A DNA stretch of 64,000 nt from the sequence record MK817115.1. One strand, given 5' to 3'. Positions 1,982-46,588 of the stretch are shown here, one piece after another (positions within the stretch are counted from its first letter, which is position 1; each line of letters begins with the position of its first letter). The notes beneath the pieces were generated by a model. It was not told where the DNA came from, did no database searches, and was given only the letters and a program-made list of their open reading frames with translations. Position numbers and translations under genes: made by a program. The stretch is from Escherichia phage vB_EcoM_phAPEC6.

Positions 1982-2009
1982 ATTATACAGTACTACGAAC
2001 GTTTGTCAA
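1982..2009 (-). promoter_or_regulatory. sigma70-type promoter (TTGACA, 16 nt, TATAAT)
   Basis: Reverse complement of 1982..2009 reads TTGACA aacgttcgtagtactg TATAAT; CAGTACTG in spacer. Confidence 0.6.
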
Positions 2010-2235
2010 CATTTGTTTCTTCAATAAGCATAAGATAACTTAACACGAAGAGTAATACCGAAATAATATCAATAACTGTAAAGCTCACTGGAATGATAAT
2101 AGACACCAGTACTAATGCCACGTTTAGCAAGAATACAGTAGTGAGATCTACCATCGTTCGTCTAGTGGCTAATGCCACTAGTGTAGGATAGAACATAAAC
2201 AATAGTGCAACAACAAAACTTAGTACTAGATACAT
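1993..2235 (-). CDS. hypothetical membrane protein (80 aa)
   Basis: Highly hydrophobic ORF. Confidence 0.5.
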   Translation of the reverse strand: MYLVLSFVVALLFMFYPTLVALATRRTMVDLTTVFLLNVALVLVSIIIPVSFTVIDIISVLLFVLSYLMLIEETNVDKRS

Positions 2236-2906
2236 TTCTTTTTCACCTTAATAAAATTATAACACAAAACCACATCAACATCTGGCTCATCATACAAGTA
2301 CTCAAAACGTTCTTTACTTCGTTTAGTACCGATATACTCACCATTCTTATGCCAACGCCATCCACCATCCTTTGGTTGTTCAGACTTCAGTACTGGGTGA
2401 TAGCACAGGACAATTTCTTCTGGACCTTCAATTAGGTTCTTGTACTTATTCATAATCTGTTCAAGCGTATCTGCTACACCATAAGATGGATGCATAAGAT
2501 AAGACTCAGGACGTGGACGTCCACTTGGTAGAATATCATCAGTACTATTAAAGATAGCACGGAAGTCTTCAGATGTGTATAGACTTCCATCTTCATGGAT
2601 CATTGGGTATTCATCCACGACATCGTAATCAGTGAAGTGTTCAATTGCATGTGCAGGTCGATAACCTGCAAGGATACCTGCATGTTTAGTCTGGACAATA
2701 GTCATAACAGATGTATTGTTGTTTACATTTGGAACATGAATTTCAGCCCAGAACGGATGATTTGGGTCAAAAGTTGCATTTACCAATGTACACTCACCAA
2801 TGTAATCAAACATAGTTTCCTTGAAGTTTAAAGAAACCCCACGTAATGCCCAGTCAGGTGAAGTGATGAAATTAAGATTAACTAACATAAGTATCCTCAT
2901 ATGCAT
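2226..2906 (-). CDS. hypothetical protein (226 aa)
   Basis: Long uninterrupted ORF; no motif recognised. Confidence 0.6.
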   Translation of the reverse strand: MHMRILMLVNLNFITSPDWALRGVSLNFKETMFDYIGECTLVNATFDPNHPFWAEIHVPNVNNNTSVMTIVQTKHAGILAGYRPAHAIEHFTDYDVVDEYPMIHEDGSLYTSEDFRAIFNSTDDILPSGRPRPESYLMHPSYGVADTLEQIMNKYKNLIEGPEEIVLCYHPVLKSEQPKDGGWRWHKNGEYIGTKRSKERFEYLYDEPDVDVVLCYNFIKVKKKCI

Positions 2907-2919
2907 TTTTTTGATGTGG

Positions 2920-3135
2920 TTATTGTATCAAAGATGTATCGATTTGTACAACATTTATTGTAACTATTTCGTACATATAGTCAGGTGCATTGAACTCAGC
3001 ATACCACTCAATGATCTCACAAGCAGCATCAACTTGGTTGTTCGCATTAACACGTCTTGCATAGGTACTAGACATTTTATATCTACCATTTACATACACG
3101 TTATATACACCATGACACCACCACATCTTAGTCAT
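2920..3135 (-). CDS. hypothetical small protein (71 aa)
   Basis: ORF tiled in minus-strand gene array. Confidence 0.45.
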   Translation of the reverse strand: MTKMWWCHGVYNVYVNGRYKMSSTYARRVNANNQVDAACEIIEWYAEFNAPDYMYEIVTINVVQIDTSLIQ

Positions 3136-3346
3136 TTATACTAGGCCATACTTTATATTGTAAGTTCTGGTATTGAAATTTACCAATTTCATTTTTCTTA
3201 CGGAATGATTCATCTACTTGAATTTCCGCATCGTACTGACCATCAGCCTGTACAACGTACTTAAATTCTTCTACGTGTGAAAAACGTTGACCTTCACCTT
3301 CTGGTTTATAGACTTGTACTAAACCTTCAACTAGATATAAATTCAT
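3128..3346 (-). CDS. hypothetical small protein (72 aa)
   Basis: ORF tiled in minus-strand gene array. Confidence 0.45.
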   Translation of the reverse strand: MNLYLVEGLVQVYKPEGEGQRFSHVEEFKYVVQADGQYDAEIQVDESFRKKNEIGKFQYQNLQYKVWPSIND

Positions 3347-3349
3347 TTA

Positions 3350-5851: not shown

Positions 5852-5944
5852 AGTTAATTCCTCATTTAATTTAAAAGGGCGGGAACGCAGTGACGAGTAC
5901 GATTATGCTGTCTTTCCTTTCACTGCATTCCCTTTGATATAAAC

Positions 5945-5973
5945 ATTATACTGCTATTATTCAGTACTGTCAA
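5945..5973 (-). promoter_or_regulatory. sigma70-type promoter (TTGACA, 17 nt, TATAAT)
   Basis: Reverse complement reads TTGACA gtactgaataatagcag TATAAT GTTTATATCAAA. Confidence 0.6.
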
Positions 5974-6263
5974 TCGATATAAGTACCTTTTTTAACATCA
6001 CAGACTTCTTCCATCCAATGTGGATTTTCGTTTTTATCAGTGAAGATTTGTTCTGCTTCTTCTTTTGTTTCAGCTAGGACAATACGATCCCCTTCATCCA
6101 AATCACGGATACGATACACTTTCAGTTCTTGTTTCTTCTCAAGGATATTACACAGTTCACGTGCTTTTTCTTCATCGCACTTCCCTTCATTAGCATAAAA
6201 CCAAATTGCTTTTTTAATAAGGTCACGTTCTTCTTTAGAAAAAGACATAATATTTCCTATCAT
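5970..6263 (-). CDS. hypothetical protein (97 aa)
   Basis: ORF; consensus promoter upstream at 6294..6321. Confidence 0.5.
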   Translation of the reverse strand: MIGNIMSFSKEERDLIKKAIWFYANEGKCDEEKARELCNILEKKQELKVYRIRDLDEGDRIVLAETKEEAEQIFTDKNENPHWMEEVCDVKKGTYID

Positions 6264-6293
6264 TTGTTAAAGTGGATTTCGTTTGATATAAAC

Positions 6294-6321
6294 ATTATAC
6301 AGTACTGATATCTTCTGTCAA
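6294..6321 (-). promoter_or_regulatory. sigma70-type promoter (TTGACA, 16 nt, TATAAT)
   Basis: Reverse complement reads TTGACA gaagatatcagtactg TATAAT GTTTATATCAAA; same downstream box as 5945 promoter. Confidence 0.6.
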
Positions 6322-7616: not shown

Positions 7617-7847
7617 TTACATTATTCCTTCTATGCAACAACCAAGAATTACTTTTTTAACTTCAACAACTCGTACCAAATAGAATCCATTTGAAAAGTT
7701 AAAACTATACATTTGTACTAAGGCATCTGCTTCAGATTTCGCACGGATACATGATAGATAAATTTCACGTATATCACCATCTAACGATACTTGTTTCTCT
7801 GCATCGATGACAATAGAACGAATCTCAAAACGAACACCATAACTCAT
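7617..7847 (-). CDS. hypothetical small protein (76 aa)
   Basis: ORF in track. Confidence 0.45.
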   Translation of the reverse strand: MSYGVRFEIRSIVIDAEKQVSLDGDIREIYLSCIRAKSEADALVQMYSFNFSNGFYLVRVVEVKKVILGCCIEGIM

Positions 7848-8053
7848 TGAGTTTGTCCTACAATAAGCTTTGTGTTAGTATTACTATTGTAACACCACAT
7901 TTGTTCTTTATTAACTGTAATCCAAATATCTTTGTTTACTTGTTCGTATGTACTATCACGTACTGCTATGCATTGATTCATGGAATTCATTGGGGTTATT
8001 TGTATACCGGAATTAACAGAGAAAGCGACTACTAAAAAGATTACTGAATTCAT
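7844..8053 (-). CDS. hypothetical secreted small protein (69 aa)
   Basis: Signal-peptide-like N-terminus; promoter at 8118..8146. Confidence 0.45.
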   Translation of the reverse strand: MNSVIFLVVAFSVNSGIQITPMNSMNQCIAVRDSTYEQVNKDIWITVNKEQMWCYNSNTNTKLIVGQTQ

Positions 8054-8117: not shown

Positions 8118-8146
8118 ATTCTACGCGAATGATTAATAACTGTCAA
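8118..8146 (-). promoter_or_regulatory. sigma70-type promoter (TTGACA, 17 nt, TAGAAT)
   Basis: Reverse complement reads TTGACA gttattaatcattcgcg TAGAAT. Confidence 0.5.
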
Positions 8147-8670
8147 GGACTTTTAATATTGACGGGATTTGAGGAAGGGATTTTTCTTCCCCCCACAAGG
8201 AGGGAAATTTGACGCTGATGGTATCAGAGCTATTGCATTGAAGATTACTCATAACGAGTGCGAAAGCGGGTCATCCTGTTTCTCTCTACTTCAGTTTCAT
8301 ATGACGGTCTACACTTTTAAACATAGTGTATCTTCATTAAGTATCTATGCAATCAAATACTTAATGTGAGTACTCAAATTTTGGACGCAACTTTCCTGTA
8401 CAAAATTCGATAACTCTCCCTTAGATAATTCGTAAGGTGTTATCCTTATATGTCTATCAAGGAACCACCAGCTATCCTAACGTGGTTCTTTATACAGCCG
8501 CATTGCCGTGAGGGGTTCAAACTATGCCCACATCTAACGGGTTTCTTTTGCTGTTCGCACTGTCGGACTGCTCAACTGCCCTCTACGTTTTCGAGTGGAT
8601 CAGGTACATGAATATCATGCCAACAGAATTGTACAAGATAATTATATCACAAACTTTTACTTCATCCCAT

Positions 8671-8695
8671 AAAAAAAGGTTGGCATAAGCCAACC
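8671..8695 (-). terminator. rho-independent terminator of sigma-factor gene
   Basis: 7-bp GC-rich hairpin ggttggc/gccaacc followed on minus strand by a run of 7 T. Confidence 0.65.
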
Positions 8696-8703
8696 CTTGT
8701 TCT

Positions 8704-9669
8704 TTAGAAATCTTCGTATTCGTACCCTTTTGCAAGTACTAACTTCTTAAGCTTTTGCATAGCTTCACTGTACTTTCGGTGTATTGATGAACGGGATTTA
8801 ACATATTTTCCATTATCATCAACAAAACCATTATCAGCAATCTCACGAAGCGTTTCAGGTTCATATTCACCTAGACCATGAACACGCTGGATAATCTCAC
8901 GTTCTTTAGTACTCAATTCGTTAGTTAGTTCATTGATAGCATAACGTAAAGGTGCACGGATACTATCAACATTGAGGTTAAAATCAGAAGCAGGTGAATG
9001 AATAATGTCACCTAATGTACCATCTGTAACACCGTCTAATGGTGCATCCAGTGAAGTGTATTCGCTTTGAAATAATAAACAATTATTAACATGCTGAATC
9101 TCAATCCCAGTACCCTCTGAGATTATTTCAGGTGTTGGGCGAACACCATGTTTACGCATATATTCCTGGCAGAATCTTTTTACTTTGATCTTATGAACAC
9201 TCATATAACGTGGGAAGTGTACCATATAGTTAGCGTCAGAACTTTCGTTATAAACTGTCATGTAAATACTAGAAGAAGCATAGGTAATGAACTTCACATT
9301 CTTATTAAGATCAAAGGTTTTTAGTGCTCTCATGAACCCCTCAACACCATATGAAATCTTATCTTCAAATGGGATATAACAAGTACATTTACTTGCTACA
9401 TCAATAATAAGTCCATAATTGTAACGAACTAACAGTTCAGTGTTTTTCTTTACATTGATACCAGCTTGAATATCACGAATTAGATCTTCATTGGAAACAT
9501 TTGGTGGTCGCTTAAGTGTAATATTATATTTGAAACTGCTTTGTACTTTACCTTCATTTTCATCTTTATCTTCAACGAAATCTAAGGCTTCTAGTGTGTT
9601 GACTTCTTCATTAGCAAAACATTCATCCAGAACTTCTTCGGCAATTGTATTTAAATCAAGCTTTTTCAC
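8704..9669 (-). CDS. sigma-70 family RNA polymerase sigma factor (321 aa)
   Basis: Region 2-like segment (LIRDIQAGINVKKNTELLVRYNYGLIIDVASK) and region 4 HTH-like C-terminus (TLREIADNGFVDDNGKYVKSRSSIHRKYSEAMQKLKK). Confidence 0.75.
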   Translation of the reverse strand: MKKLDLNTIAEEVLDECFANEEVNTLEALDFVEDKDENEGKVQSSFKYNITLKRPPNVSNEDLIRDIQAGINVKKNTELLVRYNYGLIIDVASKCTCYIPFEDKISYGVEGFMRALKTFDLNKNVKFITYASSSIYMTVYNESSDANYMVHFPRYMSVHKIKVKRFCQEYMRKHGVRPTPEIISEGTGIEIQHVNNCLLFQSEYTSLDAPLDGVTDGTLGDIIHSPASDFNLNVDSIRAPLRYAINELTNELSTKEREIIQRVHGLGEYEPETLREIADNGFVDDNGKYVKSRSSIHRKYSEAMQKLKKLVLAKGYEYEDF

Positions 9670-10875: not shown

Positions 10876-10949
10876 AATGTTTTCCTTTTTAGCTGATAAT
10901 TAAATTAGGAGCACATTGTACTCCATATTATTTGTTATGTAAAATACTT

Positions 10950-11201: not shown

Positions 11202-11260
11202 AAGTTCCTTACTCTAATTTGTTTTTAACAAAATAATTATATATAACATACTAAATTATG

Positions 11261-11686
11261 TCAAGTATTTTTAGTACCTTCTTCTGCCATTTTTGTGATA
11301 TACCAATTAAGTACTGATTTGTGTACCATAAAAAATGTGAATGCAAATATAGCAATAGCTGCTGATGTAACACTATTAGATAATGACCCAAGTTGGATGT
11401 TAGTACCTAAAATAACAATAAATGGATACAACACAATCAATCTACTGTAAGGTTCGTCTCCAGTATCACGGAGAAATCCAAGCCTTTCATGATCAGTATC
11501 CATAGTGACAATTGGACAGAACATAAGTGCAGACATAAGAGCAATACCAATTTGTGCTACATTGGAAATTGTAAACCACAAAGGATTTAAACCATATGAA
11601 ATATTATTTTCTGTACAGTAGTAACCAAACGAATTGAATGCACAAACTAAAAATACAAAAATACAAATCTTATTATAGCCTCTCAT
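11261..11686 (-). CDS. hypothetical membrane protein (141 aa)
   Basis: Several hydrophobic helices. Confidence 0.55.
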   Translation of the reverse strand: MRGYNKICIFVFLVCAFNSFGYYCTENNISYGLNPLWFTISNVAQIGIALMSALMFCPIVTMDTDHERLGFLRDTGDEPYSRLIVLYPFIVILGTNIQLGSLSNSVTSAAIAIFAFTFFMVHKSVLNWYITKMAEEGTKNT

Positions 11687-12106: not shown

Positions 12107-12565
12107 TTACTTTAGTCCCCATGCTTTTTTGATTGCATCAACAGAGTTTTGGTCCACTACTTCCTTTTTTTCTGATGTAGTTTGAAGTTTATTAATTACA
12201 TATTCCTTTGCATCTTTTTCTATCATAAATTTACCATCAACCAACACACCAAAAACTTTAGAATTTCGGGCTGGATATGGATTAATTTCATCAAGAGTAC
12301 GGACTTTCTTATCAACTATAATGGCTTTGATGTAACCAGTTTCAAGTACTGTTGTAATCACAGTCATTTCAATTGCAACTGGTGAATCCTCCCAATATGC
12401 AATCCATTTAGTAAAGCTACGATCAGGTGAATCCTTTGTGCATTTTAATTTAATTGCACTATTAAAAATGTATTGTTTAAAATTGTCATCGACAACTTCA
12501 CTAATACTAAAATAACCTTCACGCTCTTCAACATTACGTTTGAAATTTGTAGCTAATACATCCAT
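12107..12565 (-). CDS. hypothetical protein (152 aa)
   Basis: ORF with SD-like AGGGGGA upstream and promoter at 12598..12626. Confidence 0.6.
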   Translation of the reverse strand: MDVLATNFKRNVEEREGYFSISEVVDDNFKQYIFNSAIKLKCTKDSPDRSFTKWIAYWEDSPVAIEMTVITTVLETGYIKAIIVDKKVRTLDEINPYPARNSKVFGVLVDGKFMIEKDAKEYVINKLQTTSEKKEVVDQNSVDAIKKAWGLK

Positions 12566-12597: not shown

Positions 12598-12626
12598 ATT
12601 ATAATACTAAGAATCTTTGTTGTCAA
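12598..12626 (-). promoter_or_regulatory. sigma70-type promoter (TTGACA, 17 nt, TATAAT)
   Basis: Reverse complement reads TTGACA acaaagattcttagtat TATAAT. Confidence 0.6.
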
Positions 12627-13544: not shown

Positions 13545-13768
13545 ACCTCTTTTACAATAATATCGATTGATACTGGAATTGCAATTTCACTATTACATGA
13601 ATATACATCAGCACAGTACTCAATATCTAGTACTTTATAATATTTCTCAAAACCACAAATGGTAAGATTCAACGTTGACCCAACTGCTGGGAGTACAGGA
13701 AATGATAAGAACGCAATTTTAGAATGAAATTCTTCATTGATATCTTGATATACAGTTGCAGTAATCAC
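13541..13768 (-). CDS. hypothetical small protein (75 aa)
   Basis: ORF in track. Confidence 0.45.
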   Translation of the reverse strand: MITATVYQDINEEFHSKIAFLSFPVLPAVGSTLNLTICGFEKYYKVLDIEYCADVYSCNSEIAIPVSIDIIVKEV

Positions 13769-14376: not shown

Positions 14377-14405
14377 ATGATAACACCAAATCATACACCA
14401 GTCAA
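14377..14405 (-). promoter_or_regulatory. sigma70-type promoter (TTGACT, 17 nt, TATCAT)
   Basis: Reverse complement reads TTGACT ggtgtatgatttggtgt TATCAT; divergent from plus-strand promoter. Confidence 0.5.
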
Positions 14406-14414
14406 GCTCATTTT

Positions 14415-14443
14415 TTGGATATGCATAATAAATACGTTATAAT
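14415..14443 (+). promoter_or_regulatory. sigma70-type promoter (TTGGAT, 17 nt, TATAAT) for the only plus-strand gene
   Basis: TTGGAT atgcataataaatacgt TATAAT, then GGAGGG Shine-Dalgarno and ATG at 14466. Confidence 0.55.
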
Positions 14444-14465
14444 AATTATACCAATGGAGGGATAA

Positions 14466-15620
14466 ATGTCAAGGTCAATTGCTGCGGCTGGACACTATAA
14501 GTTTGGTGAATGTGGTTATGTTGTTGATGGTGCAATCCTCAACGATGGAACTAGACTAAAAAATATTAGAATCTATCGCCAAAGAAGCCATAGATTATAT
14601 GATTTAATTGATCCAAGAACTAATATAATATATCGTAAAGTACAAATAACAACTAAAGATAATAAAGGTTATCTATTAAATTACAATAAAACTAATGACC
14701 AACTATTAAGTGAAATTAATAAAAATTGTTTCTTTGTTCGTGGATATTCTGAAGAGCCACAAGAAACTGATACTGGATTTGTATATAAATTTATGCTACA
14801 TAAAACAATTTTAGGTAGTTCACAAACCTTGTATCATATGTATACACCTGAATGTGGTATTATAGATCGTGATATAGATAATATTCTCATTTCACCAGTA
14901 TTTGTTGGTAATGACTCAATTAGTGGTAAATTATTCAACACTGGTTCAGAAATTGATACTAACGGTATGGTAATAACAATCGTATTACCAGACGGGACAG
15001 AATACTTTACTACCCAATTTGTTAATGATGCATTTACAATTCCAGTTGATGTTATCACACAATCAGGGAAAGGTACTGCTACGCTCACTTCTCCATATTA
15101 TAACACTAAAGTGGTGGAATTTGATGTTCTTGAAAGTGGTGAGGATATTGATTTTGTTACATCAGTTCTTCTATCCCAATTTGAACCTGTTTCGGAAGGT
15201 GTATTTTCTGCGGTTGTTCCATTTGATGTTCATGATCGTGGACAGTACTTAGCACTTCAAGCATACAGTGGTGACTTATATCAAGTTGGTGTAGATCTTT
15301 CTGTAGACGCAGAAGGTAATATTACTGTGTATCAAACTGATAATTTACCTGTTTCTTTGAGTATAATCGGAAAAACACTGCATACTACTCCTTTCCATAA
15401 AGAATATACTTTAAGTGAGTGGGTTCTCGGTGAAGACTCTATGTACTCTATCTCAGTTCCAGTAACTGAACATGGTAAAGCACTACCACAAGTTCAATTA
15501 TATTCTTCAGACAATCATGTAGTTCATAGTGAAATACAAGTGGATGAAGATGATAATGTAATTCTTAAAGTAGTAGAACCGCTTGACTGCTCAGTCGTAA
15601 TAGTTGGTTACAACGCATAA
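14466..15620 (+). CDS. hypothetical protein (384 aa), beta-rich, possibly structural
   Basis: Long ORF with strong SD GGAGGG, own promoter and terminator; only convincing plus-strand gene. Confidence 0.75.
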   Translation: MSRSIAAAGHYKFGECGYVVDGAILNDGTRLKNIRIYRQRSHRLYDLIDPRTNIIYRKVQITTKDNKGYLLNYNKTNDQLLSEINKNCFFVRGYSEEPQETDTGFVYKFMLHKTILGSSQTLYHMYTPECGIIDRDIDNILISPVFVGNDSISGKLFNTGSEIDTNGMVITIVLPDGTEYFTTQFVNDAFTIPVDVITQSGKGTATLTSPYYNTKVVEFDVLESGEDIDFVTSVLLSQFEPVSEGVFSAVVPFDVHDRGQYLALQAYSGDLYQVGVDLSVDAEGNITVYQTDNLPVSLSIIGKTLHTTPFHKEYTLSEWVLGEDSMYSISVPVTEHGKALPQVQLYSSDNHVVHSEIQVDEDDNVILKVVEPLDCSVVIVGYNA

Positions 15621-19477: not shown

Positions 19478-19664
19478 AAGTATAACACAGTAGAAGTTAA
19501 AAAGTCAACTTCTAAATTACAGCATCCAAGAGGAATAAAAAGATACTGTTAGAGGGTAACGAATATAATGAATTTGAGGGTAATATCATTATACGTAAAA
19601 AAGTGATAGCTTCTATACATAAGGAGGAATCAGTACTGACTAGAAGCTATCGGGTTAAACGATT

Positions 19665-21286: not shown

Positions 21287-21414
<128 letters not shown>

Positions 21415-22611: not shown

Positions 22612-23219
<608 letters not shown>

Positions 23220-23270: not shown

Positions 23271-23295
23271 ATTATATCAGTACTGAACTATTTAG

Positions 23296-23299
<4 letters not shown>
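23271..23299 (-). promoter_or_regulatory. sigma70-type promoter (TTGACT, 17 nt, TATAAT)
   Basis: Reverse complement reads TTGACT aaatagttcagtactga TATAAT, with TG one base upstream of the -10 hexamer (extended -10). Confidence 0.65.
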
Positions 23300-23709
<410 letters not shown>

Positions 23710-24310: not shown

Positions 24311-24426
<116 letters not shown>

Positions 24427-24459
24427 ATGTTATGTCCCATTATATAATGAATTAATGAT

Positions 24460-28674: not shown

Positions 28675-28789
28675 TTTAATACCCTTTTATTTCTTTTTTA
28701 TGAAAAACCCTCATCATTGAGGAATGGTTTGCATTTTAATATCTGCCGATAACAAACATTATATCACAATATCTGTTCTTGTCCAATGT

Positions 28790-31224: not shown

Positions 31225-31424
31225 TTCGTATATCCTCGTTTAATTAATATAGGAGTATTATACATACTCCATTTTCATGTGTCAAGCTTTATAATACGGA
31301 AGACTTTTTACTAAAGATTCAGACGTATTATTTTTTACCCATGTACTACCGTTGTCATTAGATACGTATCCAGTACCATTAATAAATTTACGCATAATAC
31401 CAGTAAAAATATTAGTATACACCA

Positions 31425-32199: not shown

Positions 32200-32579
32200 A
32201 GTTTTTTCCAGTCCAATGAATCGAAATCGATTTGTTCAGGATTATCAACAGCGACAACTCGTGCATTATGAAGAGTTTCAAAGTAGCCGTTCCACGGTGT
32301 ACGTACTGGAATTTTTTCATCTCCAATTTTTACAAAGAAAGAGAATTCACATGACATTGGATCAAACCATTCTTTATGTTTGGCTTCATCGATTATTGTC
32401 GCACGTTCGTTACTATATGCATCATCGAGTTTCTTAAAGAATACCCAATGCTCTTTCAAAGACTGTAATGCTACAACTGCCTCATCCTTTGATTCCCATT
32501 GAACATCCAATGTATTGGTAACTGAATCTTCAGTTTCAGTGTCCCCTGTAGTGTAATGTACTTCAATGCTGTATTTCAT
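32196..32579 (-). CDS. hypothetical protein (127 aa)
   Basis: ORF in track; lacks family motif. Confidence 0.55.
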   Translation of the reverse strand: MKYSIEVHYTTGDTETEDSVTNTLDVQWESKDEAVVALQSLKEHWVFFKKLDDAYSNERATIIDEAKHKEWFDPMSCEFSFFVKIGDEKIPVRTPWNGYFETLHNARVVAVDNPEQIDFDSLDWKKL

Positions 32580-33573: not shown

Positions 33574-33588
33574 TGCGTGGATTTGTAA

Positions 33589-34119: not shown

Positions 34120-34931
34120 CCATTCCCAAGCATTTTGTATGCTTGTGTCTTACTAGACACTTTAAAGAAATCTTCAGGAACACCCTGTAATTTACAACAT
34201 TCTACTACACTTAAGTGTCTATAGTCAATATTTCTTTTGCCATTCTCTAATAGATATTGACGACTGATCACTGGGTCACGAAACACCAATTGTCGTCTGG
34301 ATTTATTAAAGTACTGGTTACAATCACCACCTTTAAAATAGTTAGCATCTATACAGTACGAAGCGGTTCTGTCAGTGTACCAACCATCTTCAATAATATC
34401 TTGAAGTTTAGGTGCATTGGATAATGCAGGTGGTATAAAAAGCTTATCAGTACTGTACCAGTAATATCTCTGCCTGAAGTGAGGCGTATAATGCTGGGAG
34501 TTTATCAGTACTGGCGTGATTCCTAAAATACTATTAATGTATTCTTTGAAATCTTCCTTCATTTTAACATTTTCAAACAGAAATTTCAAGTTAGGATTGA
34601 GACTTTTGATATGATCAAAAATTTCAACCATTACTAAAAATAACTGCCCACGTATATCATTTAAACCACCCTGTTTACCTGCAACTGACCAGGCTTGGCA
34701 TGGGAAACCACCCATTAATAAATCTATTTTGTCCCACTCAATATCCCATTCTCTCCACTTAGTTACATCACCCAATTGGATAATATCAGGAAAGTTAGAT
34801 TGAGATTCAGCTATTGCGTACTTATCAATTTCGGATGAATAATATTTTTCAACTGGGATACCCGCATCTTGCAATGCCATATATCCCACACTCATTCCAT
34901 TAAAAAGAGAAAGTACTCGGATAGGTTTCAT
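34071..34931 (-). CDS. DNA (cytosine-5)-methyltransferase (286 aa)
   Basis: C5-MTase motifs: LFNGMSVG (motif I-like), GGFPCQAWS (catalytic PCQ), FLFENV, C-terminal GNGW. Confidence 0.75.
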   Translation of the reverse strand: MKPIRVLSLFNGMSVGYMALQDAGIPVEKYYSSEIDKYAIAESQSNFPDIIQLGDVTKWREWDIEWDKIDLLMGGFPCQAWSVAGKQGGLNDIRGQLFLVMVEIFDHIKSLNPNLKFLFENVKMKEDFKEYINSILGITPVLINSQHYTPHFRQRYYWYSTDKLFIPPALSNAPKLQDIIEDGWYTDRTASYCIDANYFKGGDCNQYFNKSRRQLVFRDPVISRQYLLENGKRNIDYRHLSVVECCKLQGVPEDFFKVSSKTQAYKMLGNGWTMPVISHLLREIFF

Positions 34932-34983
34932 ATAAAATCCTTTTTATATTGTTAAGGTACTATAATATATTATAGCATCTTAT

Positions 34984-35274
34984 TTAGAAATCTTCCAAAC
35001 TTTTTTCATCACACCATCGTGATGTACAGATGATTGCAGATGCCAGAATTGAAGCACTTGCACGTCCTCCACCGAGTAAATACTGGCTAATTACGCCAAT
35101 CATATTGAACACTTTATCATACTCGGTTAGTTGTTCAAAACCTTTCTTCCAATGCTGATATTCTTCTTCTGTGACATTAAACTCACCATCAAGTTCCTTT
35201 AAAATCTTTTTAAGCACAGCACTATGTTCACTCATCATCATCTCCATATCGTTCGTCATAAAAATCATCATCAC
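34984..35274 (-). CDS. hypothetical protein (96 aa)
   Basis: ORF in track. Confidence 0.5.
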   Translation of the reverse strand: MMMIFMTNDMEMMMSEHSAVLKKILKELDGEFNVTEEEYQHWKKGFEQLTEYDKVFNMIGVISQYLLGGGRASASILASAIICTSRWCDEKSLEDF

Positions 35275-35313
35275 GATCTAATGGTTCTTTTGGCTTTTCA
35301 GACATATATTTCC

Positions 35314-35574
35314 TCACATGGTAAAGGTATTATCACCATCCATATCTTCATCAGTTGCTTCAGCTAATGTCTTGATTGTAAGTAATCCACGCTTCACGTA
35401 CAACATGAAGACCTTTTCATAATTACCAAACATAATCTCAGGTGACATGTAATTCTCTGTTACAATGACGATTGGACGGCCCTGTGAAAGCATACGAAAC
35501 ATAGTACGATATTTGTCAAATGTGCGAAATTCATCCATGTTCATCATGTGGCGTTTACGAACTACTTTAGTCAT
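35314..35574 (-). CDS. hypothetical protein (86 aa)
   Basis: ORF in track. Confidence 0.5.
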   Translation of the reverse strand: MTKVVRKRHMMNMDEFRTFDKYRTMFRMLSQGRPIVIVTENYMSPEIMFGNYEKVFMLYVKRGLLTIKTLAEATDEDMDGDNTFTM

Positions 35575-35588
35575 CTTATTACCTTTAG

Positions 35589-36029
35589 TTAATTGAACTC
35601 TACTTCTGGATAATGATTATAGAACATCTCACGAACTGCGTCAAGATGTTCTTGAAATTGTTTTATATCTTCTAATGATGGTGCATCAATAACAGTACTA
35701 AGTTGAAACAACGATTCTTCTGTGTTATATAGTGACATATCAAATGAATTATTGTTGTCATCAGTTATGATATTATCACAAATTTCGTAAGTGTCAATAC
35801 AAACATCATCAAGTGTTGTATTATCATATACAGTGTATACGAATACAAAAATAAAAGAAGAATGTTCTTTACCATAACGCGGTGGGTCATATGTCACATA
35901 GCATTTGTGATCAAATGTATCGAGTTCCATAGACACCACCCCAGCTTCACGATATTCATTAGTTTCACTGGTAAGATCCGGTATTGATGTTATCGAAAGT
36001 AAGTGGAGAAATTTACTTGGATTTAGCAT
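35589..36029 (-). CDS. EE-x-FFQ-x-S motif family paralog (146 aa)
   Basis: Contains TEESLFQLSTVIDAPSLEDI. Confidence 0.65.
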   Translation of the reverse strand: MLNPSKFLHLLSITSIPDLTSETNEYREAGVVSMELDTFDHKCYVTYDPPRYGKEHSSFIFVFVYTVYDNTTLDDVCIDTYEICDNIITDDNNNSFDMSLYNTEESLFQLSTVIDAPSLEDIKQFQEHLDAVREMFYNHYPEVEFN

Positions 36030-36484
36030 TTCACCACCATTGGATTTTGCGACTGTATATTAAAAAGGGATAATACAAAAGTACTCAATTTTTCGAAACA
36101 ATCTACTAATACATTTAACTCATCATAACTAACACCAATTTCACGAATAAGCGATTGTTGAAAGAATCCTTCTTCGGTTAACGTTAAACTACTAACCTCA
36201 GTTATGTTATAATAACTTTGGGATGTTGTGGTTGATATTAGTTGTATTGAAATCGTATCTGATGTTGTGTTGTACAGATATAAATATTTTGTTTTTCTTT
36301 CCAATGGATCTATACATGAAAGATCGATCATGTCATAGGTTTTTCCAATAAAAATATTACAATCATCTGACAATTCACAACAAATGCGTATATGTTCTTT
36401 CGGGTCATGAACACGTTGTGTGTCAAATTCACATGACATTGCAATTTCAAAATGATTTTTTATTTCGTCAACATTCATCTGCAC
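36023..36484 (-). CDS. EE-x-FFQ-x-S motif family paralog (153 aa)
   Basis: Contains TEEGFFQQSLIREIGVS. Confidence 0.65.
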   Translation of the reverse strand: MQMNVDEIKNHFEIAMSCEFDTQRVHDPKEHIRICCELSDDCNIFIGKTYDMIDLSCIDPLERKTKYLYLYNTTSDTISIQLISTTTSQSYYNITEVSSLTLTEEGFFQQSLIREIGVSYDELNVLVDCFEKLSTFVLSLFNIQSQNPMVVKC

Positions 36485-36852
36485 CCACCATTAATTCTTA
36501 TATTTGTATAGTTTAATGCTTTTTTAATAATACCAATTTCTGTAATTCCTATTACATTTTTCTCAATCAATGACAATTGGAATAGTTCCTCTTCGGAAAT
36601 ATCAATACTGTGGATTCTTGTACAATAATCGTTGAAGTCATATACATATCGTATTGTATAGTCGTTTATAGAAACTGATACAATTGCAATCCCATCATGG
36701 ATGTAAGTTAGTTCATTTGAGTATCTATTAAAAATTAACCTATCTGGTGAACCTATTGGTAGTTGAAATGTATTTCTAGTATCTTGAACAATAACAAAAT
36801 CATCATCTATATTTCTACTCAGAACACCCAAAATATCATATATAGTAGTCAT
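36475..36852 (-). CDS. EE-x-FFQ-x-S motif family paralog (125 aa)
   Basis: Contains SEEELFQLSLIEKNVIGIT. Confidence 0.65.
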   Translation of the reverse strand: MTTIYDILGVLSRNIDDDFVIVQDTRNTFQLPIGSPDRLIFNRYSNELTYIHDGIAIVSVSINDYTIRYVYDFNDYCTRIHSIDISEEELFQLSLIEKNVIGITEIGIIKKALNYTNIRINGGCR

Positions 36853-36853
36853 G

Positions 36854-37258
36854 TTATTCTTTACCTTCAGCAGTTCTGATAATTTTCATAACTTCTCTGG
36901 ATAGTGCGTATATTTTTTTATAGTACTCAAATGTAACTGAACCAAAATCATTAATAGTACTAGCCATGAAGAACGATTCTTCTGTATATAGTTCATTTGA
37001 CAAAGCAACCAGTTCTTGGTGAAATTTTGCGTCCTTCCAATAACGAAATTCAAAAACAAATTGTCCGTCATGACCGACTCTACAACATTCAGAACGATCA
37101 CTGTCTACACAGCTAAACACAATATCCCTTTCAGAGTCGTACCAGATATTTCCAATATTTGTTTCAATAACAGCATAATCAATTTTTTTAGAATTTGGAA
37201 TTAAACCTTTTTTCACCAGCACTAAACTGGTATTATCAATATCTAGTAAACTTACCAT
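36854..37258 (-). CDS. EE-x-FFQ-x-S motif family paralog (134 aa)
   Basis: Contains TEESFFMASTINDFGSVT. Confidence 0.65.
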   Translation of the reverse strand: MVSLLDIDNTSLVLVKKGLIPNSKKIDYAVIETNIGNIWYDSERDIVFSCVDSDRSECCRVGHDGQFVFEFRYWKDAKFHQELVALSNELYTEESFFMASTINDFGSVTFEYYKKIYALSREVMKIIRTAEGKE

Positions 37259-37259
37259 A

Positions 37260-37670
37260 TCAATTCCCCATTACTAAAGTGTTTTTAATCTCCAACAATT
37301 CACTATACATATTCTTCAATTGTAATATATCTTCAAAAGTAATACCACCAAGATCATCAACTAATGAACGTTGGAATAAAGATTCACTTGTTTGTAATGT
37401 ATCTAAATCGGTGATTTTTAATAAAGAACTTGGATTAAGTGTTTCGACTAGTAGTATGTTTTTGTATGGTACATATGTGATCTTGATGTTCTTTTTATAA
37501 TTAATCTTATAAAATCGCATAATTGACGATTCATCACTTAGTTGGATAATTGGGTCGTCTTGATCATTAGACCACCATACAGTACTAGTCATATGATTGA
37601 CGTGGTGGTTCAATTCTGATATGTCCAAATCTAAAAAATATTTTAGTTCATTGTGTAAATCTAAACTCAT
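37260..37670 (-). CDS. EE-x-FFQ-x-S motif family paralog (136 aa)
   Basis: Contains TSESLFQRSLVDDLGGIT. Confidence 0.65.
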   Translation of the reverse strand: MSLDLHNELKYFLDLDISELNHHVNHMTSTVWWSNDQDDPIIQLSDESSIMRFYKINYKKNIKITYVPYKNILLVETLNPSSLLKITDLDTLQTSESLFQRSLVDDLGGITFEDILQLKNMYSELLEIKNTLVMGN

Positions 37671-37725
37671 AAATTTATCCTCAATGCAGCATCATCATGT
37701 ATTGTAGGATAAACCCACAATAATG

Positions 37726-38121
37726 TCAAGATGTGAAATAATTATACCAGTAATATAGTTCTTTTAATTCTTCAGTACTGAACAATACTTCTTCTATTGT
37801 AGATTGTTGAAAGTGATATTCATCATTTAGATACATAGAAATATTACTATATACTTTCCTATTGTATTGACATAAAAAAGAAGTTTTTTGATTAATGTAT
37901 TCAGTAAATGTTAATTTATCTAACTCAATATCGAATGATAATTTAATAATATGACTATTATCATTTACATACATTAGTTTCTTTGAAAAATGATCAATTG
38001 TAATATATTCTTTATGAGAGAACTGAAATATATTATTAAATTTATTACCATTTGTGCTTCTAAATTTTTCAAGGTAATAAGAAAGTGGTTTAATTATTGA
38101 AGTTCCAATATTGTTCTTCAT
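37726..38121 (-). CDS. EE-x-FFQ-x-S motif family paralog (131 aa)
   Basis: Contains NDEYHFQQSTIEEVLFS. Confidence 0.6.
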   Translation of the reverse strand: MKNNIGTSIIKPLSYYLEKFRSTNGNKFNNIFQFSHKEYITIDHFSKKLMYVNDNSHIIKLSFDIELDKLTFTEYINQKTSFLCQYNRKVYSNISMYLNDEYHFQQSTIEEVLFSTEELKELYYWYNYFTS

Positions 38122-38139
38122 ATATCCTCAATTTTAGAT

Positions 38140-38165
38140 AAGAAAAATGCCCCGAAGATCGGGGC
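38140..38165 (-). terminator. rho-independent terminator
   Basis: GC-rich 7-bp hairpin gccccga/tcggggc followed on minus strand by T-rich run. Confidence 0.65.
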
Positions 38166-38281
38166 AGTACTAAAATGATTTTGTACCAAAAGGGGAATAA
38201 GAACAAAATGAAAATATAATAACGCATCATTATTATGTAAGGGAGGAAAGTAACATGATATGTTAACCATTTCTGGTATAT

Positions 38282-38833
38282 TTATTTATCATTTAATTCT
38301 TTAAGTTGGGTTTGTATATCTTTAGTTATATTTCGAATTTTCTTAAAGCAATAAACACTATCGTCCAATTCGATTTTAAGTTCATGTGTAAATGCATACA
38401 GAAGTTCAGCAAATACTAAATCTTGACGCATCCAGTTTCCATCTTTATATAAAGTCATTACACAATATGGGCATTCACTATTAGAAGTTTGCTTTCCAAT
38501 AAAAACACTTTGAATTGATTCATGCTTAAAGCCAATAAAACTTTCATTTATTTTTTTAATTTCAGTACTGATATCGAATTTAGCACTGGTGTTGATTGCA
38601 AAAATTTTATTCCCACTTTCATCAGTATTGATATTGAGTTCAATATCACTACCTAGTTTACGTACTGCTAGAGTATAAAGAAGTAATTCATACATGTCGT
38701 AACTTGTTACATTACCATTTGGTGCAATTACATCAACACTAACACCGTGCATTTTTACTTCTGTATTAAATCCATCTTTATCAGAAAGAAAATCAGTGAT
38801 TTGCTTTGTAAGGATTTTAATTTGGTCTATCAT
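38282..38833 (-). CDS. hypothetical protein (183 aa)
   Basis: ORF ending at terminator 38140..38165. Confidence 0.6.
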   Translation of the reverse strand: MIDQIKILTKQITDFLSDKDGFNTEVKMHGVSVDVIAPNGNVTSYDMYELLLYTLAVRKLGSDIELNINTDESGNKIFAINTSAKFDISTEIKKINESFIGFKHESIQSVFIGKQTSNSECPYCVMTLYKDGNWMRQDLVFAELLYAFTHELKIELDDSVYCFKKIRNITKDIQTQLKELNDK

Positions 38834-38886
38834 ATTTCATTTCCTTATGTGATAAAAGCCTCCATAATGGAGGCTTTTGTATTTAC

Positions 38887-39315
38887 TTAGAGAGATTCTT
38901 CGTATTCAGCAACAATCTCAACCATTTCATTAATGAACTTGATGTGAGAATGTGTCACTGTACGGAAGTCGTAAACAAGTGACTGTTGGAAAAATACATC
39001 TTCATCAAGAGAACCATCAAAGTTCAAATCAATGTTTTCATCGTCATTGCTTGGTGCAACTTTAATATTCAGAAGATTTTCATCAACTGCAAGTTTTACA
39101 ACACAACCCAGTGCAATGGCAAGAACATATGCTGGTTTCTTAGCTTTTTCATTACGGAATGGTGCACGTAGAGCACAAAAAGTACTGCTAATCTCATCAT
39201 TTGGTTCTTTGTATTTAACATTGACCATTAGTTCTTCGATTTTGACGCTCTCAATAACACGACCAGTTTCTGGAGCGAAGAAAGAATGTTCACGGATAGT
39301 TTGTTCGATATTCAT
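38887..39315 (-). CDS. EE-x-FFQ-x-S motif family paralog (142 aa)
   Basis: Contains DEDVFFQQSLVYDFRTVT. Confidence 0.6.
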   Translation of the reverse strand: MNIEQTIREHSFFAPETGRVIESVKIEELMVNVKYKEPNDEISSTFCALRAPFRNEKAKKPAYVLAIALGCVVKLAVDENLLNIKVAPSNDDENIDLNFDGSLDEDVFFQQSLVYDFRTVTHSHIKFINEMVEIVAEYEESL

Positions 39316-44602: not shown

Positions 44603-44605
44603 GTA

Positions 44606-45295
44606 TTAATCCATTTTAAGCTTGTTTAGACAGAATGAAATCTGGATTGCTTCACGTGCTGCATCAAACAGTGGGTGATGTAACTCCAACCCATTAATCC
44701 CACACGTATTTGCATATGTGATAAATTTATCCAACTGTACCGAAACGATTTCATCCATTTCAATACGAGCTTCTTCATTCAATAAACGTTTCAATGTGCG
44801 TGCATTTTCAGGTGCATCATACTTCCACAACTCACCAGCGTTCATTAGTTTTAAATGGTTTGCTTGTAAAATACTACAATCGAAGTTACATCCGTTGCCC
44901 CAGACTGAATGAGGAACTTCTTCACCATAATCATTGTAACGTAATTCTTTCCAGAAATCAACAATACTACTGTATGCAAAAAATCGTCGTGATTGACCAT
45001 TCGGTCCATACAGTTCAGGTGCTTTGAGTTTCATAGTACTGGCAACTTCAGAATATGCATTAGGGTATTCTTTCTGACATGTATTCATCCAAAAATCCAT
45101 TGCACCTGCGTCTGATTTTAAACCAGCAGCAACTTGATCCTGGTATGGTAATTTAATATATAAGAACTGACGAATGTCATTTTCAGGTTTACTTGGAACT
45201 ACTACTGCTGCGTAATTTGGGATAATAATATCATAACCGGAAAGTTCAGGTGTTCCAAGAGCTTCAATATCAACACTAATATGACGACGTTTCAT
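44606..45295 (-). CDS. dexA: DEDDh-type 3'-5' exonuclease, DexA-like (229 aa)
   Basis: Exo I-like ISVDIEALG (D-x-E) and C-terminal HHPLFDAAREA (H-x4-D); size matches T4 DexA. Confidence 0.6.
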   Translation of the reverse strand: MKRRHISVDIEALGTPELSGYDIIIPNYAAVVVPSKPENDIRQFLYIKLPYQDQVAAGLKSDAGAMDFWMNTCQKEYPNAYSEVASTMKLKAPELYGPNGQSRRFFAYSSIVDFWKELRYNDYGEEVPHSVWGNGCNFDCSILQANHLKLMNAGELWKYDAPENARTLKRLLNEEARIEMDEIVSVQLDKFITYANTCGINGLELHHPLFDAAREAIQISFCLNKLKMD

Positions 45296-45374
45296 AAGTT
45301 AGTTCCTTATCTGTACATTAAAAAGAGTGCGTTTTCAATAAGATTATATTAAAAACGCACTCATATGTCAACTA

Positions 45375-46511
45375 TTACTTGTTAGCTTTTTCGGCAATTT
45401 CACGAAGAGTGTCTTCCAGTTCATAGGAAAGTTGTGCAATTTCCTGTTTAGCACGTTCACGTTCCAATTTACCTTTTTTCTCTTCTTCAATAACTGCTTC
45501 AATACTGTCAATCATCGTTTTATGTACATTACGCAAGGTTTTAATATCCACAATACCACGGTTGTTTGCCTTTGCTGCATCCAACATATTTGCTGCAACC
45601 ATTTTAGAGTTAGTTTCCAAAAGACGGTTTGTCTCATTATCAATTAGATTGCCTAGTTCATTATCCTTACGTTGACGCTCGGAAATCAACTGTTCAGCCA
45701 ATTGAGACTTCCATGCTGGAATAACAACGGATTTTAAATCTTCAAACTTAGAAACAGTGTTCAAGTTTACTTTTTTCATACTCATCAAGCGTGGACCACT
45801 TAGTTCGCACATCATGATAAGACGACGAATCTTATCTTCTTGTTTAGAAAGTGCTTCACAAATCATCTTTTGCTCTTGAATAGCAAAAGAGTCTACATTT
45901 TTGTCTGCTTGCATTTCTACTAATAATGCATCTTGTGTTTTAGTCACTTCTTCTAAACCAACTAATGTATCACGCAATTCAAACAAATATTCTTTGTTTT
46001 CATTATATGCTTTATCAAGCCATTCACATTCTCCGTGCTGGCGATTAATACCAGTTTGAAGAGTTTTCATAATTTCGTCAATTTGCTCTTTACTGTTTTT
46101 GTACTGATCACCTACTTTCTGTTGAGCATTAACAAAGAATTTCTTAATACGACCAACAATTGATTTATCTTCTTGAAGACTGTCAATATCAACTGCACGA
46201 GTCAACGTAAGAATTGTGGTGATTGATTTACCAAACTCGGTATTGTCATCCGTTACATTAACTTTAGACATAATTTCATCAGCCAAACGCCCAACAGCAG
46301 CACCAGCAGTTGTACCAACAGTATTGATGTTTTGAACTGTTAGAGACATAGTATTTCCCTTAACATCTTTCAGTACTGGTAGTGATTTTGTAGTTTGGTT
46401 AAAAATATCACTTGCATCAATTGTATGACCTTTAGTCGCAGTTTTAGTAGTACGTTTTGCTGATTTAGCTGCGGTGGATGCTTTTTTAGGATTGATTTCT
46501 TTCTCGGACAT
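45375..46511 (-). CDS. hypothetical coiled-coil protein with Lys-rich N-terminus (378 aa)
   Basis: Long ORF; basic N-terminal tail then heptad-like segments; no motif recognised. Confidence 0.65.
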   Translation of the reverse strand: MSEKEINPKKASTAAKSAKRTTKTATKGHTIDASDIFNQTTKSLPVLKDVKGNTMSLTVQNINTVGTTAGAAVGRLADEIMSKVNVTDDNTEFGKSITTILTLTRAVDIDSLQEDKSIVGRIKKFFVNAQQKVGDQYKNSKEQIDEIMKTLQTGINRQHGECEWLDKAYNENKEYLFELRDTLVGLEEVTKTQDALLVEMQADKNVDSFAIQEQKMICEALSKQEDKIRRLIMMCELSGPRLMSMKKVNLNTVSKFEDLKSVVIPAWKSQLAEQLISERQRKDNELGNLIDNETNRLLETNSKMVAANMLDAAKANNRGIVDIKTLRNVHKTMIDSIEAVIEEEKKGKLERERAKQEIAQLSYELEDTLREIAEKANK

Positions 46512-46559
46512 TTAGTATTCCTCGTTTAATTTAATATGATGTGCTGCTCTGTGATAAAC

Positions 46560-46588
46560 ATTATACGGACAGCACGTATGATAGTCAA
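46560..46588 (-). promoter_or_regulatory. sigma70-type promoter (TTGACT, 17 nt, TATAAT)
   Basis: Reverse complement reads TTGACT atcatacgtgctgtccg TATAAT GTTTATCAC. Confidence 0.55.

Follow-up and report, generated by a model that had tools for sequence, protein, structure and literature searches.

The closest described counterparts of the promoters considered here come from other phages. In CBB, 18 RpoD-like promoters with an UP-like element are found mostly in the early region, where the sigma gene also lies, and the same promoter class has reportedly been predicted in GAP32, according to the CBB paper (PMC5259590). In PA5oct, 32 TTGAC/TATAATA promoters lie at starts located by RNA sequencing (RNA-seq), with a rifampicin-sensitive polymerase (PMC7318152), and the early promoters of T4 are of the UP/-35/TGn/-10 type (PMC2988021). 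T4-type phages also carry the so-called PeSL (promoter-early stem-loop) elements, mobile repeated units of a promoter and a stem-loop that often have poly-G/poly-C stems and stand before ORFans; an ORFan may lie between two such units in one phage, with one chimeric unit in another (PMC2839356, PMC4122927). Here we describe a family of near-consensus promoters in a stretch of 64,000 nucleotides (nt) from Escherichia phage vB_EcoM_phAPEC6 (MK817115.1), the whole of which is called the window and is numbered from its first letter, together with a short sequence box that follows the -10 hexamer of some of these promoters. Over the first 20 kb, which were compared, the window is 98-99% identical to the Asteriusvirus jumbo coliphages slurp01, 121Q, PBECO4 and G17 (~350 kb). 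We consider that the sites are very probably early promoters read with the host sigma-70, and that the box belongs to a promoter-leader module which here edges an ORFan cassette.

With the promoters of CBB, GAP32 and PA5oct, those of the window share an architecture (A-tract, cTTGACA, ~17 bp, TAtAAT), an assignment to the host polymerase, and a setting of short ORFans, transfer RNA (tRNA) genes and a phage sigma gene. The likeness to CBB extends to a composite of terminator and promoter at 208-242, which is almost identical to an element that the CBB supplement lists as terminator Torf39 only, with no promoter (PMC5259590). The present phage, of the genus Asteriusvirus, differs from CBB in the AGTACT boxes in the spacers of several promoters and in the module box behind two of them, neither of which is in the CBB list. 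As in the early promoters of T4, several near-consensus sigma-70 elements are combined in each promoter, and the promoters are many per genome, with some situated inside an upstream gene or at its end and others placed before tRNA genes. Use at once after infection, as in T4, is presumed. Phages of the Asteriusvirus group encode a sigma-70-family factor, which T4 does not, and a sample of T4 is without the AGTACT enrichment described below.

Near-consensus promoters on the minus strand

The motif TTGACW-N16/17-TATAAT occurs exactly at 14 places in the window, all of them on the minus strand, against 0.27 expected, and none of 100 shuffles reached 14; permitting an N18 spacer raises the number to 16. 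With at most one mismatch and a spacer of 16-18 nt there are 31 sites on the minus strand and 2 on the plus strand, and with at most two mismatches 65 and 13, respectively. The promoter family is real, of a known kind, and an expected feature. Promoter-like sites of this quality stand far above chance. Of the dozen sites that the first-pass annotation had proposed from the sequence, eight are exact (1982, 5945, 6294, 12598, 21316, 23271, 23681 and 46560); those at 8118 (TAGAAT), 14377 (TTGACT/TATCAT) and 22811 (TTGACT/TAAAAT) are imperfect yet well placed; and the plus-strand one at 14415 (TGGATA-N16-TATAAT) is weak. Six further exact sites (11236, 14445, 28850, 31257, 45343 and 63519) had been overlooked, as had near-exact ones at 208, 28758, 29396, 37701, 47766 and 52630. 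Individual promoters are listed in Table 1 and are denoted in the text by a P and their first position.

Among the sites with at most one mismatch, 22 of 28 lie 20-110 nt 5' of a start codon, where the background is 19.5% of positions (p=2.7e-11), and two further promoters stand 11 nt before the first tRNA of a cluster. Genes are so tightly packed, with a coding density of 93% in the window, that many promoters overlap the stop codon or the 3' end of the gene before them: the TGA within TTGACA doubles as the stop codon of the upstream ORF (open reading frame) in 8 of 40 cases, and some 15 more lie wholly inside the 3' ends of upstream genes, an arrangement that had been claimed for some promoters from the outset and is borne out. 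Several promoters are fused to terminator-like hairpins, and within the window a hairpin is found at or beside those at 208, 5945, 19479, 31257, 45343, 46560 and 59382.

The sub-elements shared by these sites were sought by aligning the 40 placed promoters and comparing each position with the base composition of the strand, at a cut-off of p<0.001. Enrichment was found for C immediately 5' of the -35 hexamer (p=8e-6), for A at -5 from the -35 (30 of 40 promoters, p=1e-6), with positions -7 to -9 rich in A, and for G at -14 (20 of 40, p=8e-6); T at -15, present in 23 of 40, falls short of the cut-off (p=0.003). These positions are the usual sigma-70 accessory elements, namely an UP-like A-tract and, in about half of the promoters, an extended -10 (TGn).

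The hexamers are also conserved. In JNE01 and Turkey5 the -35 and -10 are retained at nearly every alignable promoter, with flanks that are 73-85% identical and spacers that often differ. The hexamers of P14445 and the -35 of P14377 are conserved at ~77-83% regional identity, the -10 of P14377 becoming TATTAT, and those of P31257 at 75% regional identity; the hexamers at 19479 are conserved in both genomes, as is P45343, which has a fold of -24 kcal/mol (2nd percentile). The orthologue of P5945 is retained in JNE01 and RaK2, and the composite at 208..242 is also found in RaK2 (14044-14073 and 15701-15730 of the piece examined) and is thus conserved across three genera.

Some of the promoters are repeated. 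Those at 22811, 23271 and 23681 are near-identical, sharing TTGACTAAATAGTTCAGTACTG, and precede unrelated genes or, 11 nt 5' of tRNA-Ser/Met/Asn in the case of P22811, a tRNA cluster. Homology with 121Q, PBECO4, ELP-22, JNE01 and Turkey5 is lost within or beside these three promoters, breaking at P23271 itself; P24411 is an edge of an insertion or deletion (indel) in ELP-22 and PBECO4; and relatives show mosaicism over 20-27 kb and 5.9-6.3 kb of the window. That the repeated promoters are a by-product of tandem gene duplication was considered and set aside, since the genes behind them are unrelated and include no paralogues. A second promoter type known from CBB, TGAAAC...TATAAT, occurs in the window at chance level. 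At both promoters of tRNA clusters (22801-22839 and 24401-24438) the -10 stops 10 nt before the mature tRNA 5' end, so that the leader of the primary transcript would be only about 3-4 nt.

The downstream box, its module and the ORFan cassette

The first-pass annotation had also reported that several minus-strand promoters continue with the same sequence just downstream of the -10, and had taken this to imply a conserved transcription-start or leader element. The box GTTTATATCAAA is indeed exact behind P5945 and P6294, but at these two places only (5933-5944 and 6282-6293), and GTTTATCAC is present at 46560, where Turkey5 keeps it despite a diverged spacer. Searched for with two mismatches, GTTTATATCAAA is at chance level in the window (24 found against 26.6 expected). 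The sequence TATAATGTTT, by comparison, has 6 copies against 0.97 expected, each of them behind a promoter -10 (5945, 6294, 23681, 28758, 46560 and 52630). Across the 40 aligned promoters no position 3' of the -10 reaches p<0.001; beyond the hexamer, G is only weakly favoured at +1, as is T at +3, +4 and +6. On the per-position test and the two-mismatch count, the box was rejected as a family-wide element. What stands of the earlier claim is a leader module that exists for a subfamily, with only one or two promoters of the window carrying its full form; for this small subfamily the box is real, by way of the module and a cassette indel.

The box is seen twice in the window because an ORFan cassette (gene 5970-6263) lies between two module-derived promoters. 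P5945 and P6294 have the 19 bp GTATAATGTTTATATCAAA in common, their spacers differ, and the genes behind them are unrelated. The cassette ORFan is missing from ELP-22 and seven other Asteriusviruses, and in ELP-22 a single chimeric promoter, its upstream half from P6294 and its downstream half from P5945, has its junction within GTATAATGTTTATATCAAA. A second, separate event is seen in JNE01, which has both promoters (the first with a quite different spacer), and its close relative Turkey5, which has one chimera. Recombination inside the shared 19 bp would add or remove the cassette, as in the PeSL cassettes of T4-type phages.

The module from which these promoters would derive is best seen elsewhere. 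In TH47, a region of 13.4 kb near the terminal direct repeat (86541-99921) carries 22 near-consensus promoters on one strand. The 5' part of their module consensus consists of AAAAAGTAC, TTGCAT or TTGACA, and a 16-bp spacer that often ends or starts with AGTACTG; the 3' part consists of TATAAT, (G/A)nTTTACATC(G/A)AG, a GGGG...CCCC hairpin, ACTAA and a ribosome-binding site, and TATAAT-rnTTTACATCrAG with the GGGG...CCCC hairpin is common to 13 of the 22. Asteriusvirus genomes carry a multi-copy module whose consensus is a close variant of the box, TATAAT-GTTTTACATCgAG with a G-run/C-run hairpin after it, and a 106-nt module copy used as query matches 8-30 places per Asteriusvirus genome and 4-8 in Munch-like phages. 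The -35 and spacer start of P5945, TTGACAGTACTGAA, are identical to those of two TH47 module copies; P5945 is a member of the module family, its box being one base shorter than that of the module. The module-rich region lies outside the window, ~46-56 kb away in G17 and PBECO4 coordinates, and this terminal region aligns in 7-22 pieces. The module of ~100 nt comprises an A-tract, (A)GTAC, the -35, a spacer holding AGTACTG, TATAAT, a GTTTTACATCaAG-like box, a G-run/C-run hairpin and a ribosome-binding site, its 8-30 copies sitting mostly in the terminal immediate-early region. The 106-nt module also has single matches (75-79% identity) in the rV5-like phages UPEC06, JLBYU50 and ZYD, of ~140 kb, and matches records labelled Campylobacter phage A145 and C3, which hints at an exchange of regulatory modules between unrelated coliphages.

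In several respects this arrangement resembles PeSL elements: a repeated module of ~100 bp joins a sigma-70 promoter to an A+T-rich stretch and often also to a G-run/C-run stem-loop, stands mainly in variable regions before ORFans, and flanks an ORFan with two copies where a relative has a single chimera. It differs in that the phages concerned are Rak2-like jumbo phages and not T4-likes, in that a minority of the window promoters have a stem-loop, and in that the enrichment of indel edges at promoters is non-significant once an intergenic location is allowed for.

The leader of P5945 has a fold of -24.3 kcal/mol (z -5.0), its hairpin beginning seven bases after the presumed start, and is possibly a 5'-proximal stem-loop or stabiliser, an attenuator or a small RNA. 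Rfam matched no family to this leader, and over the leader and the rest of the window it returned tRNAs and no other RNA family. RaK2 has a feature, labelled there as a pseudo-tRNA ('tRNA-OTHER'), with which the leader has a short conserved stretch in common; ARAGORN makes no call on such RaK2 features.

The box reaches well beyond the genus. The RaK2 orthologue of P5945 carries TATAATGTTTATATCAA, identical at 17 of 17 positions, with a diverged spacer and an adjacent gene ~78% identical, and AGTACTGTATAATGTTTACAATCAAG stands at another RaK2 promoter. In IMG/VR, AGTACTGTATAATGTTTATATCAAGAC occurs in a contig of 366 kb that is a relative of Salmonella phage Munch and Klebsiella phage fENko-Kae01, and TATAATGTTTATATCAAG is retained in both RaK2 and this jumbo contig. 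The exact 18-mer had 15 matches in IMG/VR, of which 3 were Rak2-like genomes; the rest are close to chance on a rough estimate, though a few stand in promoter-like contexts.

It is a substantial possibility, although one from which we lean slightly away, that the box and the module leader are themselves functional and selected, the duplication around the cassette being secondary. The box could, as an A+T-rich discriminator, tune open-complex lifetime or promoter escape; by setting where the transcript begins, it could let a 5'-proximal hairpin shield early mRNA against 5'-end-dependent decay; or a factor that shuts off early transcription could bind to it. A function of this kind would suit the identity of TATAATGTTTATATCAA in the RaK2 orthologue and in the IMG/VR contig, the retention of the box in JNE01 and Turkey5 after a wholly different spacer, the consensus and hairpin shared by 13 of the 22 TH47 promoters, and the high stability of the P5945 leader hairpin. 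Yet most window promoters are without the box, the hairpin has little covariation (most pairs are invariant G-C), and frequent recombination or gene conversion among copies could keep them uniform without functional selection.

The AGTACT palindrome

The palindrome AGTACT is by far the most over-represented hexamer of the window, with 149 sites against 21.9 expected, and CAGTACTG is found 26 times against 0.66 expected; the flanks of AGTACT prefer C before and G after (consensus cAGTACTg). Within genes there are 134 sites as compared with 32 in synonymous-codon shuffles (maximum 44), all three frames being enriched, and the motif is enriched in non-coding DNA as well. An origin in codon or dipeptide usage was rejected, since shuffles of synonymous codons and of codon order give 32 and 20 sites, respectively. 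GGTACC and CGTACG are absent from the window (5.4 expected each), while AGTACT and TGTACA are over-represented, GTAC being the core common to all of them.

The enrichment is 5-8x in the window, 8.3x in RaK2, 9.9x in CBB and 7-8x in JNE01 and Turkey5; it rises to 16-18x in the terminal promoter-rich immediate-early regions and is 4.7x in tail genes. Among palindromic hexamers, AGTACT is the most over-represented in all the enterobacterial Rak2-like phages that were sampled; it is not enriched in a sample of T4 (7 against 5.5 expected), and 16 kb of PA5oct are free of it. Where nucleotide identity is 75%, the share of sites that stay intact is 53-60% for AGTACT and 25-26% for other hexamers, and gains roughly equal losses; the motif is under selection. 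Several candidate explanations were discarded. A bias like that of very-short-patch repair fits poorly, as the one-off neighbours, AGTATT/AATACT among them, are not depleted. The SlmA-type site, which we take to be GTGAGTACTCAC, is not indicated either, since C follows in only 9 of 149 cases. No link emerged to the phage's own C5-methyltransferase, the obvious candidate partner, the RaK2 paper reporting methylation of CpG type and AGTACT containing no CpG. The phage literature that we searched held nothing relevant on AGTACT or CAGTACTG.

At promoters, AGTACT abuts the -10 at 1982, 6294, 22811, 23271 and 23681, follows the -35 at 5945, and abuts the -35 at 22811. These boxes may be operators of an AGTACT-binding protein that switches this subclass of promoters on or off, an explanation that we think rather unlikely; such a protein would also bind ~2-6 sites per kb across the genome. 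The composite AGTACTG(N0-1)TAWAAT is found 7 times in the window, 5 of them in promoters, against ~0.3 expected, and recurs in ELP-22, JNE01, PBECO4 and RaK2. Ten promoters in a Munch-like IMG/VR contig of 14.5 kb share the layout AGTAC-TTGCAT-N-AGTACT-nTATAAT, with two boxes 20 bp apart, one abutting each hexamer; in JNE01, the orthologue of P28758 has a box where the window has none; and the enrichment and conservation of sites extend over the genome. Against operators stand the lack of any candidate protein among what was found, the P6294 orthologues of JNE01 and Turkey5, which are without the box although the promoter is retained, and the published promoters of CBB, which are without AGTACT although the CBB genome is enriched in it. 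The proximal UP subsite has the consensus AAAAAARNR, which AAAAAGTAC before the -35 also suits, so that the pattern may be partly ordinary. Taken more broadly, a phage or host protein or modification enzyme might recognise AGTACT genome-wide and couple the marking or compaction of the genome to the control of early promoters, a suggestion that we regard as tentative and as falling short of probable.

Polymerase, gene content and significance

The phage encodes a sigma factor (gene 8704-9669) that has regions 2, 3 and 4 and is closest, among proteins of solved structure, to primary sigma factors (E=5e-17), and the promoters might be read by this factor and be middle, not early, promoters. We hold this to be very unlikely. 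The sigma gene is the last of a terminator-closed operon behind P11236 and P10915, and the phage sigma would therefore itself be made from such promoters. The phage segment aligned to E. coli ATWWIRQAITRS, presumably the -10-reading region with the residues that contact the promoter, is not conserved and reads ASSSIYMTVYNE, and the region 4.2 helix is altered and carries an insertion. Every sub-element, UP and TGn included, fits the consensus of E. coli sigma-70; since the recognition segments of the phage factor differ, the host sigma-70 is far more likely to be the reader. The CBB authors likewise give the equivalent promoters to the host enzyme and describe a second type with a -35 of TGAAACG (PMC5259590).

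On the preferred reading, that of early promoters used by the host sigma-70, each promoter would offer an A-tract (UP-like, for the alpha subunit), cTTGACA, a spacer of 16-18 bp, TGn in about half of the cases, and TATAAT. Such promoters would out-compete host promoters right after DNA entry and would drive small ORFans, tRNA clusters and the phage's own sigma-factor gene. The sequence features, their placement and conservation, the cassette polymorphism and the multi-copy module are observed in the DNA, from which we infer the sigma factor used, the early timing, a start ~7 nt beyond the -10 and the way in which the cassette recombines. The description of these sites as near-consensus early promoters, as first proposed, agrees with their sequence, strand, placement and conservation across genomes and with the literature on sister phages, the words 'early' and 'sigma-70' carrying less certainty than the rest because the searched literature held no mapped starts for Asteriusvirus.

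Several points weigh against the preferred reading, the first being that the same literature held no transcription-start or timing data for the genus at all. The exact or near matches at 28850 and 29396 have their next start codon 176-247 nt away and are possibly silent. Taken together, the 40 window promoters are not more structured than the background (Mann-Whitney p=0.84); their folding energies being the same as background, a general embedding in stem-loops was rejected, and the stem-loop half of the PeSL definition therefore applies to a subset only. Of 20 distinct indel edges, 6 are located in a promoter ±10 nt (p=6e-5 with all positions as the reference), but against positions outside gene interiors the figure is 5 of 15 (p=0.09, not significant); promoters were accordingly rejected as statistically preferred indel edges, and a general enrichment there is only suggestive. 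Lastly, the 17 of 17 identity of the box in another genus suggests selection on the box itself, beyond inheritance by recombination.

That the strict matches are functionless chance hexamers in A+T-rich DNA of 33% G+C has next to no probability: a scan relaxed to at least 9 of 12 matching positions did find 93 sites against 102 expected in 20 kb, which makes weak matches uninformative and confines the signal to the strict set, but strict matches are ~50-fold over expectation, on one strand only, before genes, and kept in diverged genomes.

G+C is 33% across the window, and nearly all genes are on the minus strand. By the annotation of G17 and ELP-22, the first 47 kb carry short hypothetical genes, seven tRNA genes, the sigma-70-family sigma factor and a C5 DNA methyltransferase, with replication genes and some virion genes from ~47 kb on; the genes served by the window promoters have no Pfam matches. 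The only plus-strand gene, 14466-15620, is a virion protein by the annotation of relatives, and 32 nt 5' of its start sits AATAAATA, a sequence similar to ATAAATA, the late motif reported in CBB. Far fewer copies of the T4-late-like motif TATAAATA are found in the window than expected (2 against 12), and its sole minus-strand copy (55871-55878) lies 12 nt 5' of the start of the 2.4-kb gene 53439-55859, which is compatible with a reserved late-promoter signal.

Other differences among the genomes were noted in passing. G17 is 98.5-100% identical to the window except over ~6.4 kb (window ~32516-38925; 6408 against 6564 nt), where it is not alignable at high identity, which suggests a replaced mosaic segment. 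In JNE01 the orthologue of the methyltransferase 34071-34931 is interrupted or extended by an insertion of ~1 kb at window ~34700. Three tandem paralogous ORFs of 54 amino acids (aa) occupy 23720-24206 on the minus strand, and PBECO4 and ELP-22 carry two; the copy number changes through recombination between the paralogues. Three long stretches (225-330 nt) that lack a convincing ORF, on the minus strand at 8253-8582, 19440-19664 and 21378-21618, have no Rfam family matches and are candidate non-coding RNAs or gene remnants.

Table 1. Promoters and other features of the window, in window coordinates.
Feature	Position	Strand	Remarks
Composite terminator and promoter	208..242	-	Hairpin AAAGGTTGACTTCGGTCAGCCTTT contains the -35 TTGACT; T-run enters TGtTATAAT (N18)
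Promoter TTGACA-N16-TATAAT	1982..2009	-	AGTACTG abuts the -10; 47 nt 5' of gene 1609-1935
P5945 leader	5868..5938	-	13-bp hairpin GGGAAUGCAGUGA/UCACUGCGUUCCC, then GCCCUUUU
Box copy 1, GTTTATATCAAA	5933..5944	-	Presumed discriminator and first transcribed bases; right-hand cassette repeat
Promoter TTGACAGTACTG...TATAAT (N17)	5945..5973	-	-35 TGA is the stop of gene 5970-6263
Indel cassette	5951..6282	-	ORFan 5970-6263 (97 aa) and one promoter, between 19-bp direct repeats GTATAATGTTTATATCAAA
Box copy 2, GTTTATATCAAA	6282..6293	-	Left-hand cassette repeat
Promoter TTGACA-N16-TATAAT	6294..6321	-	CAGTACTG abuts the -10; 31 nt 5' of gene 5970-6263
Promoter TTGACA-N17-TAGAAT	8118..8146	-	5' of gene 7844-8053; -35 kept in JNE01, Turkey5
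Terminator closing the sigma-factor operon	8675-8698		
Phage sigma factor, sigma-70 family	8704-9669	-	Regions 2, 3, 4 present
Weaker promoter TTTACA-N17-TACAAT	10915..10943	-	Hairpin overlaps; heads the sigma-factor operon
Promoter TTGACA-N17-TATAAT	11236..11264	-	-35 TGA is the upstream ORF stop
Promoter TTGACA-N17-TATAAT	12598..12626	-	33 nt 5' of gene 12107-12565
Tandem P14445 (TTGACA-N16-tggTATAAT) and P14377 (TTGACT-N17-tgtTATCAT)	14377..14472	-	5' of gene 13765-14349
Promoter-like TTGACT-N18-tgtTATACT	19479..19508	-	Hairpin contains the -35; strong hairpin 19453-19477 directly after
tRNA-Thr	20950-21023		Downstream of P21316
Promoter TTGACA-N16-gtgTATAAT	21316..21343	-	Before a small ORF and tRNA-Thr
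Promoter AGTAC-TTGACT-aaatagttcAGTACTGa-TAAAAT	22811..22839	-	Two AGTACT boxes 20 bp apart
Promoter TTGACTAAATAGTTCAGTACTGaTATAAT	23271..23299	-	22-nt module common to 22811 and 23681
Promoter TTGACTAAATAGTTCAGTACTG-TATAAT-GTTTGT	23681..23708	-	5' of gene 23296-23649
Extended -10 promoter GGGACA-N16-tgaTATAAT	24411..24438	-	11 nt 5' of tRNA-Ser(tga), tRNA-Arg
Promoter TGGACA-N16-tgaTATAAT-GTTTGT	28758..28785	-	
Exact promoter site	28850-28878	-	60 nt before the upstream gene's end
Promoter TTGACA-N17-atgTATAAT	31257..31285	-	Hairpin GGAGTAT/ATACTCC over the -10; -35 TGA is a stop codon
C5-cytosine DNA methyltransferase	34071-34931	-	Pfam PF00145, E=7.5e-38
Promoter TTGACA-N17-TACAAT	37701..37729	-	-35 TGA is a stop codon
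Promoter TTGACA-N17-TATAAT	45343..45371	-	Inside terminator-like hairpin GAGTGCGTTTT.../...AAAACGCACTC, then TTTTT
Promoter TTGACT-N17-TATAAT-GTTTATCAC	46560..46588	-	Hairpin GTGCTG.../...CAGCAC over the -10
Promoter TTGACA-N17-atgTACAAT	47766..47794	-	Immediately after a terminator
Promoter TTGAAA-N18-tgaTATAAT-GTTTAT	52630..52659	-	
Promoter TTGACA-N17-TATAAT	63519..63547	-	-35 TGA is a stop codon
AGTACT example positions	893, 2388, 4497, 5962, 6300, 13503, 19631, 19666, 22818, 23278, 23687		

For annotation, the analysis provides a checked list of ~25-40 early promoters, with operons (that of the phage sigma factor included) and tRNA promoters, for a phage group that is used in therapy studies and has no promoters in its genome records. 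As a signal, the AGTACT enrichment is strong, simple, testable and genome-wide, and would lead to new DNA biology in jumbo phages if a factor that binds or modifies it were found. The PeSL idea holds that regulatory cassettes are portable recombination sites for the shuffling of ORFans; a module present at 8-30 copies and flanking a cassette that is present or absent extends this idea beyond T4-type phages to Rak2-like jumbo phages, where shuffling mediated by the module could help to explain the strong mosaicism of early regions.

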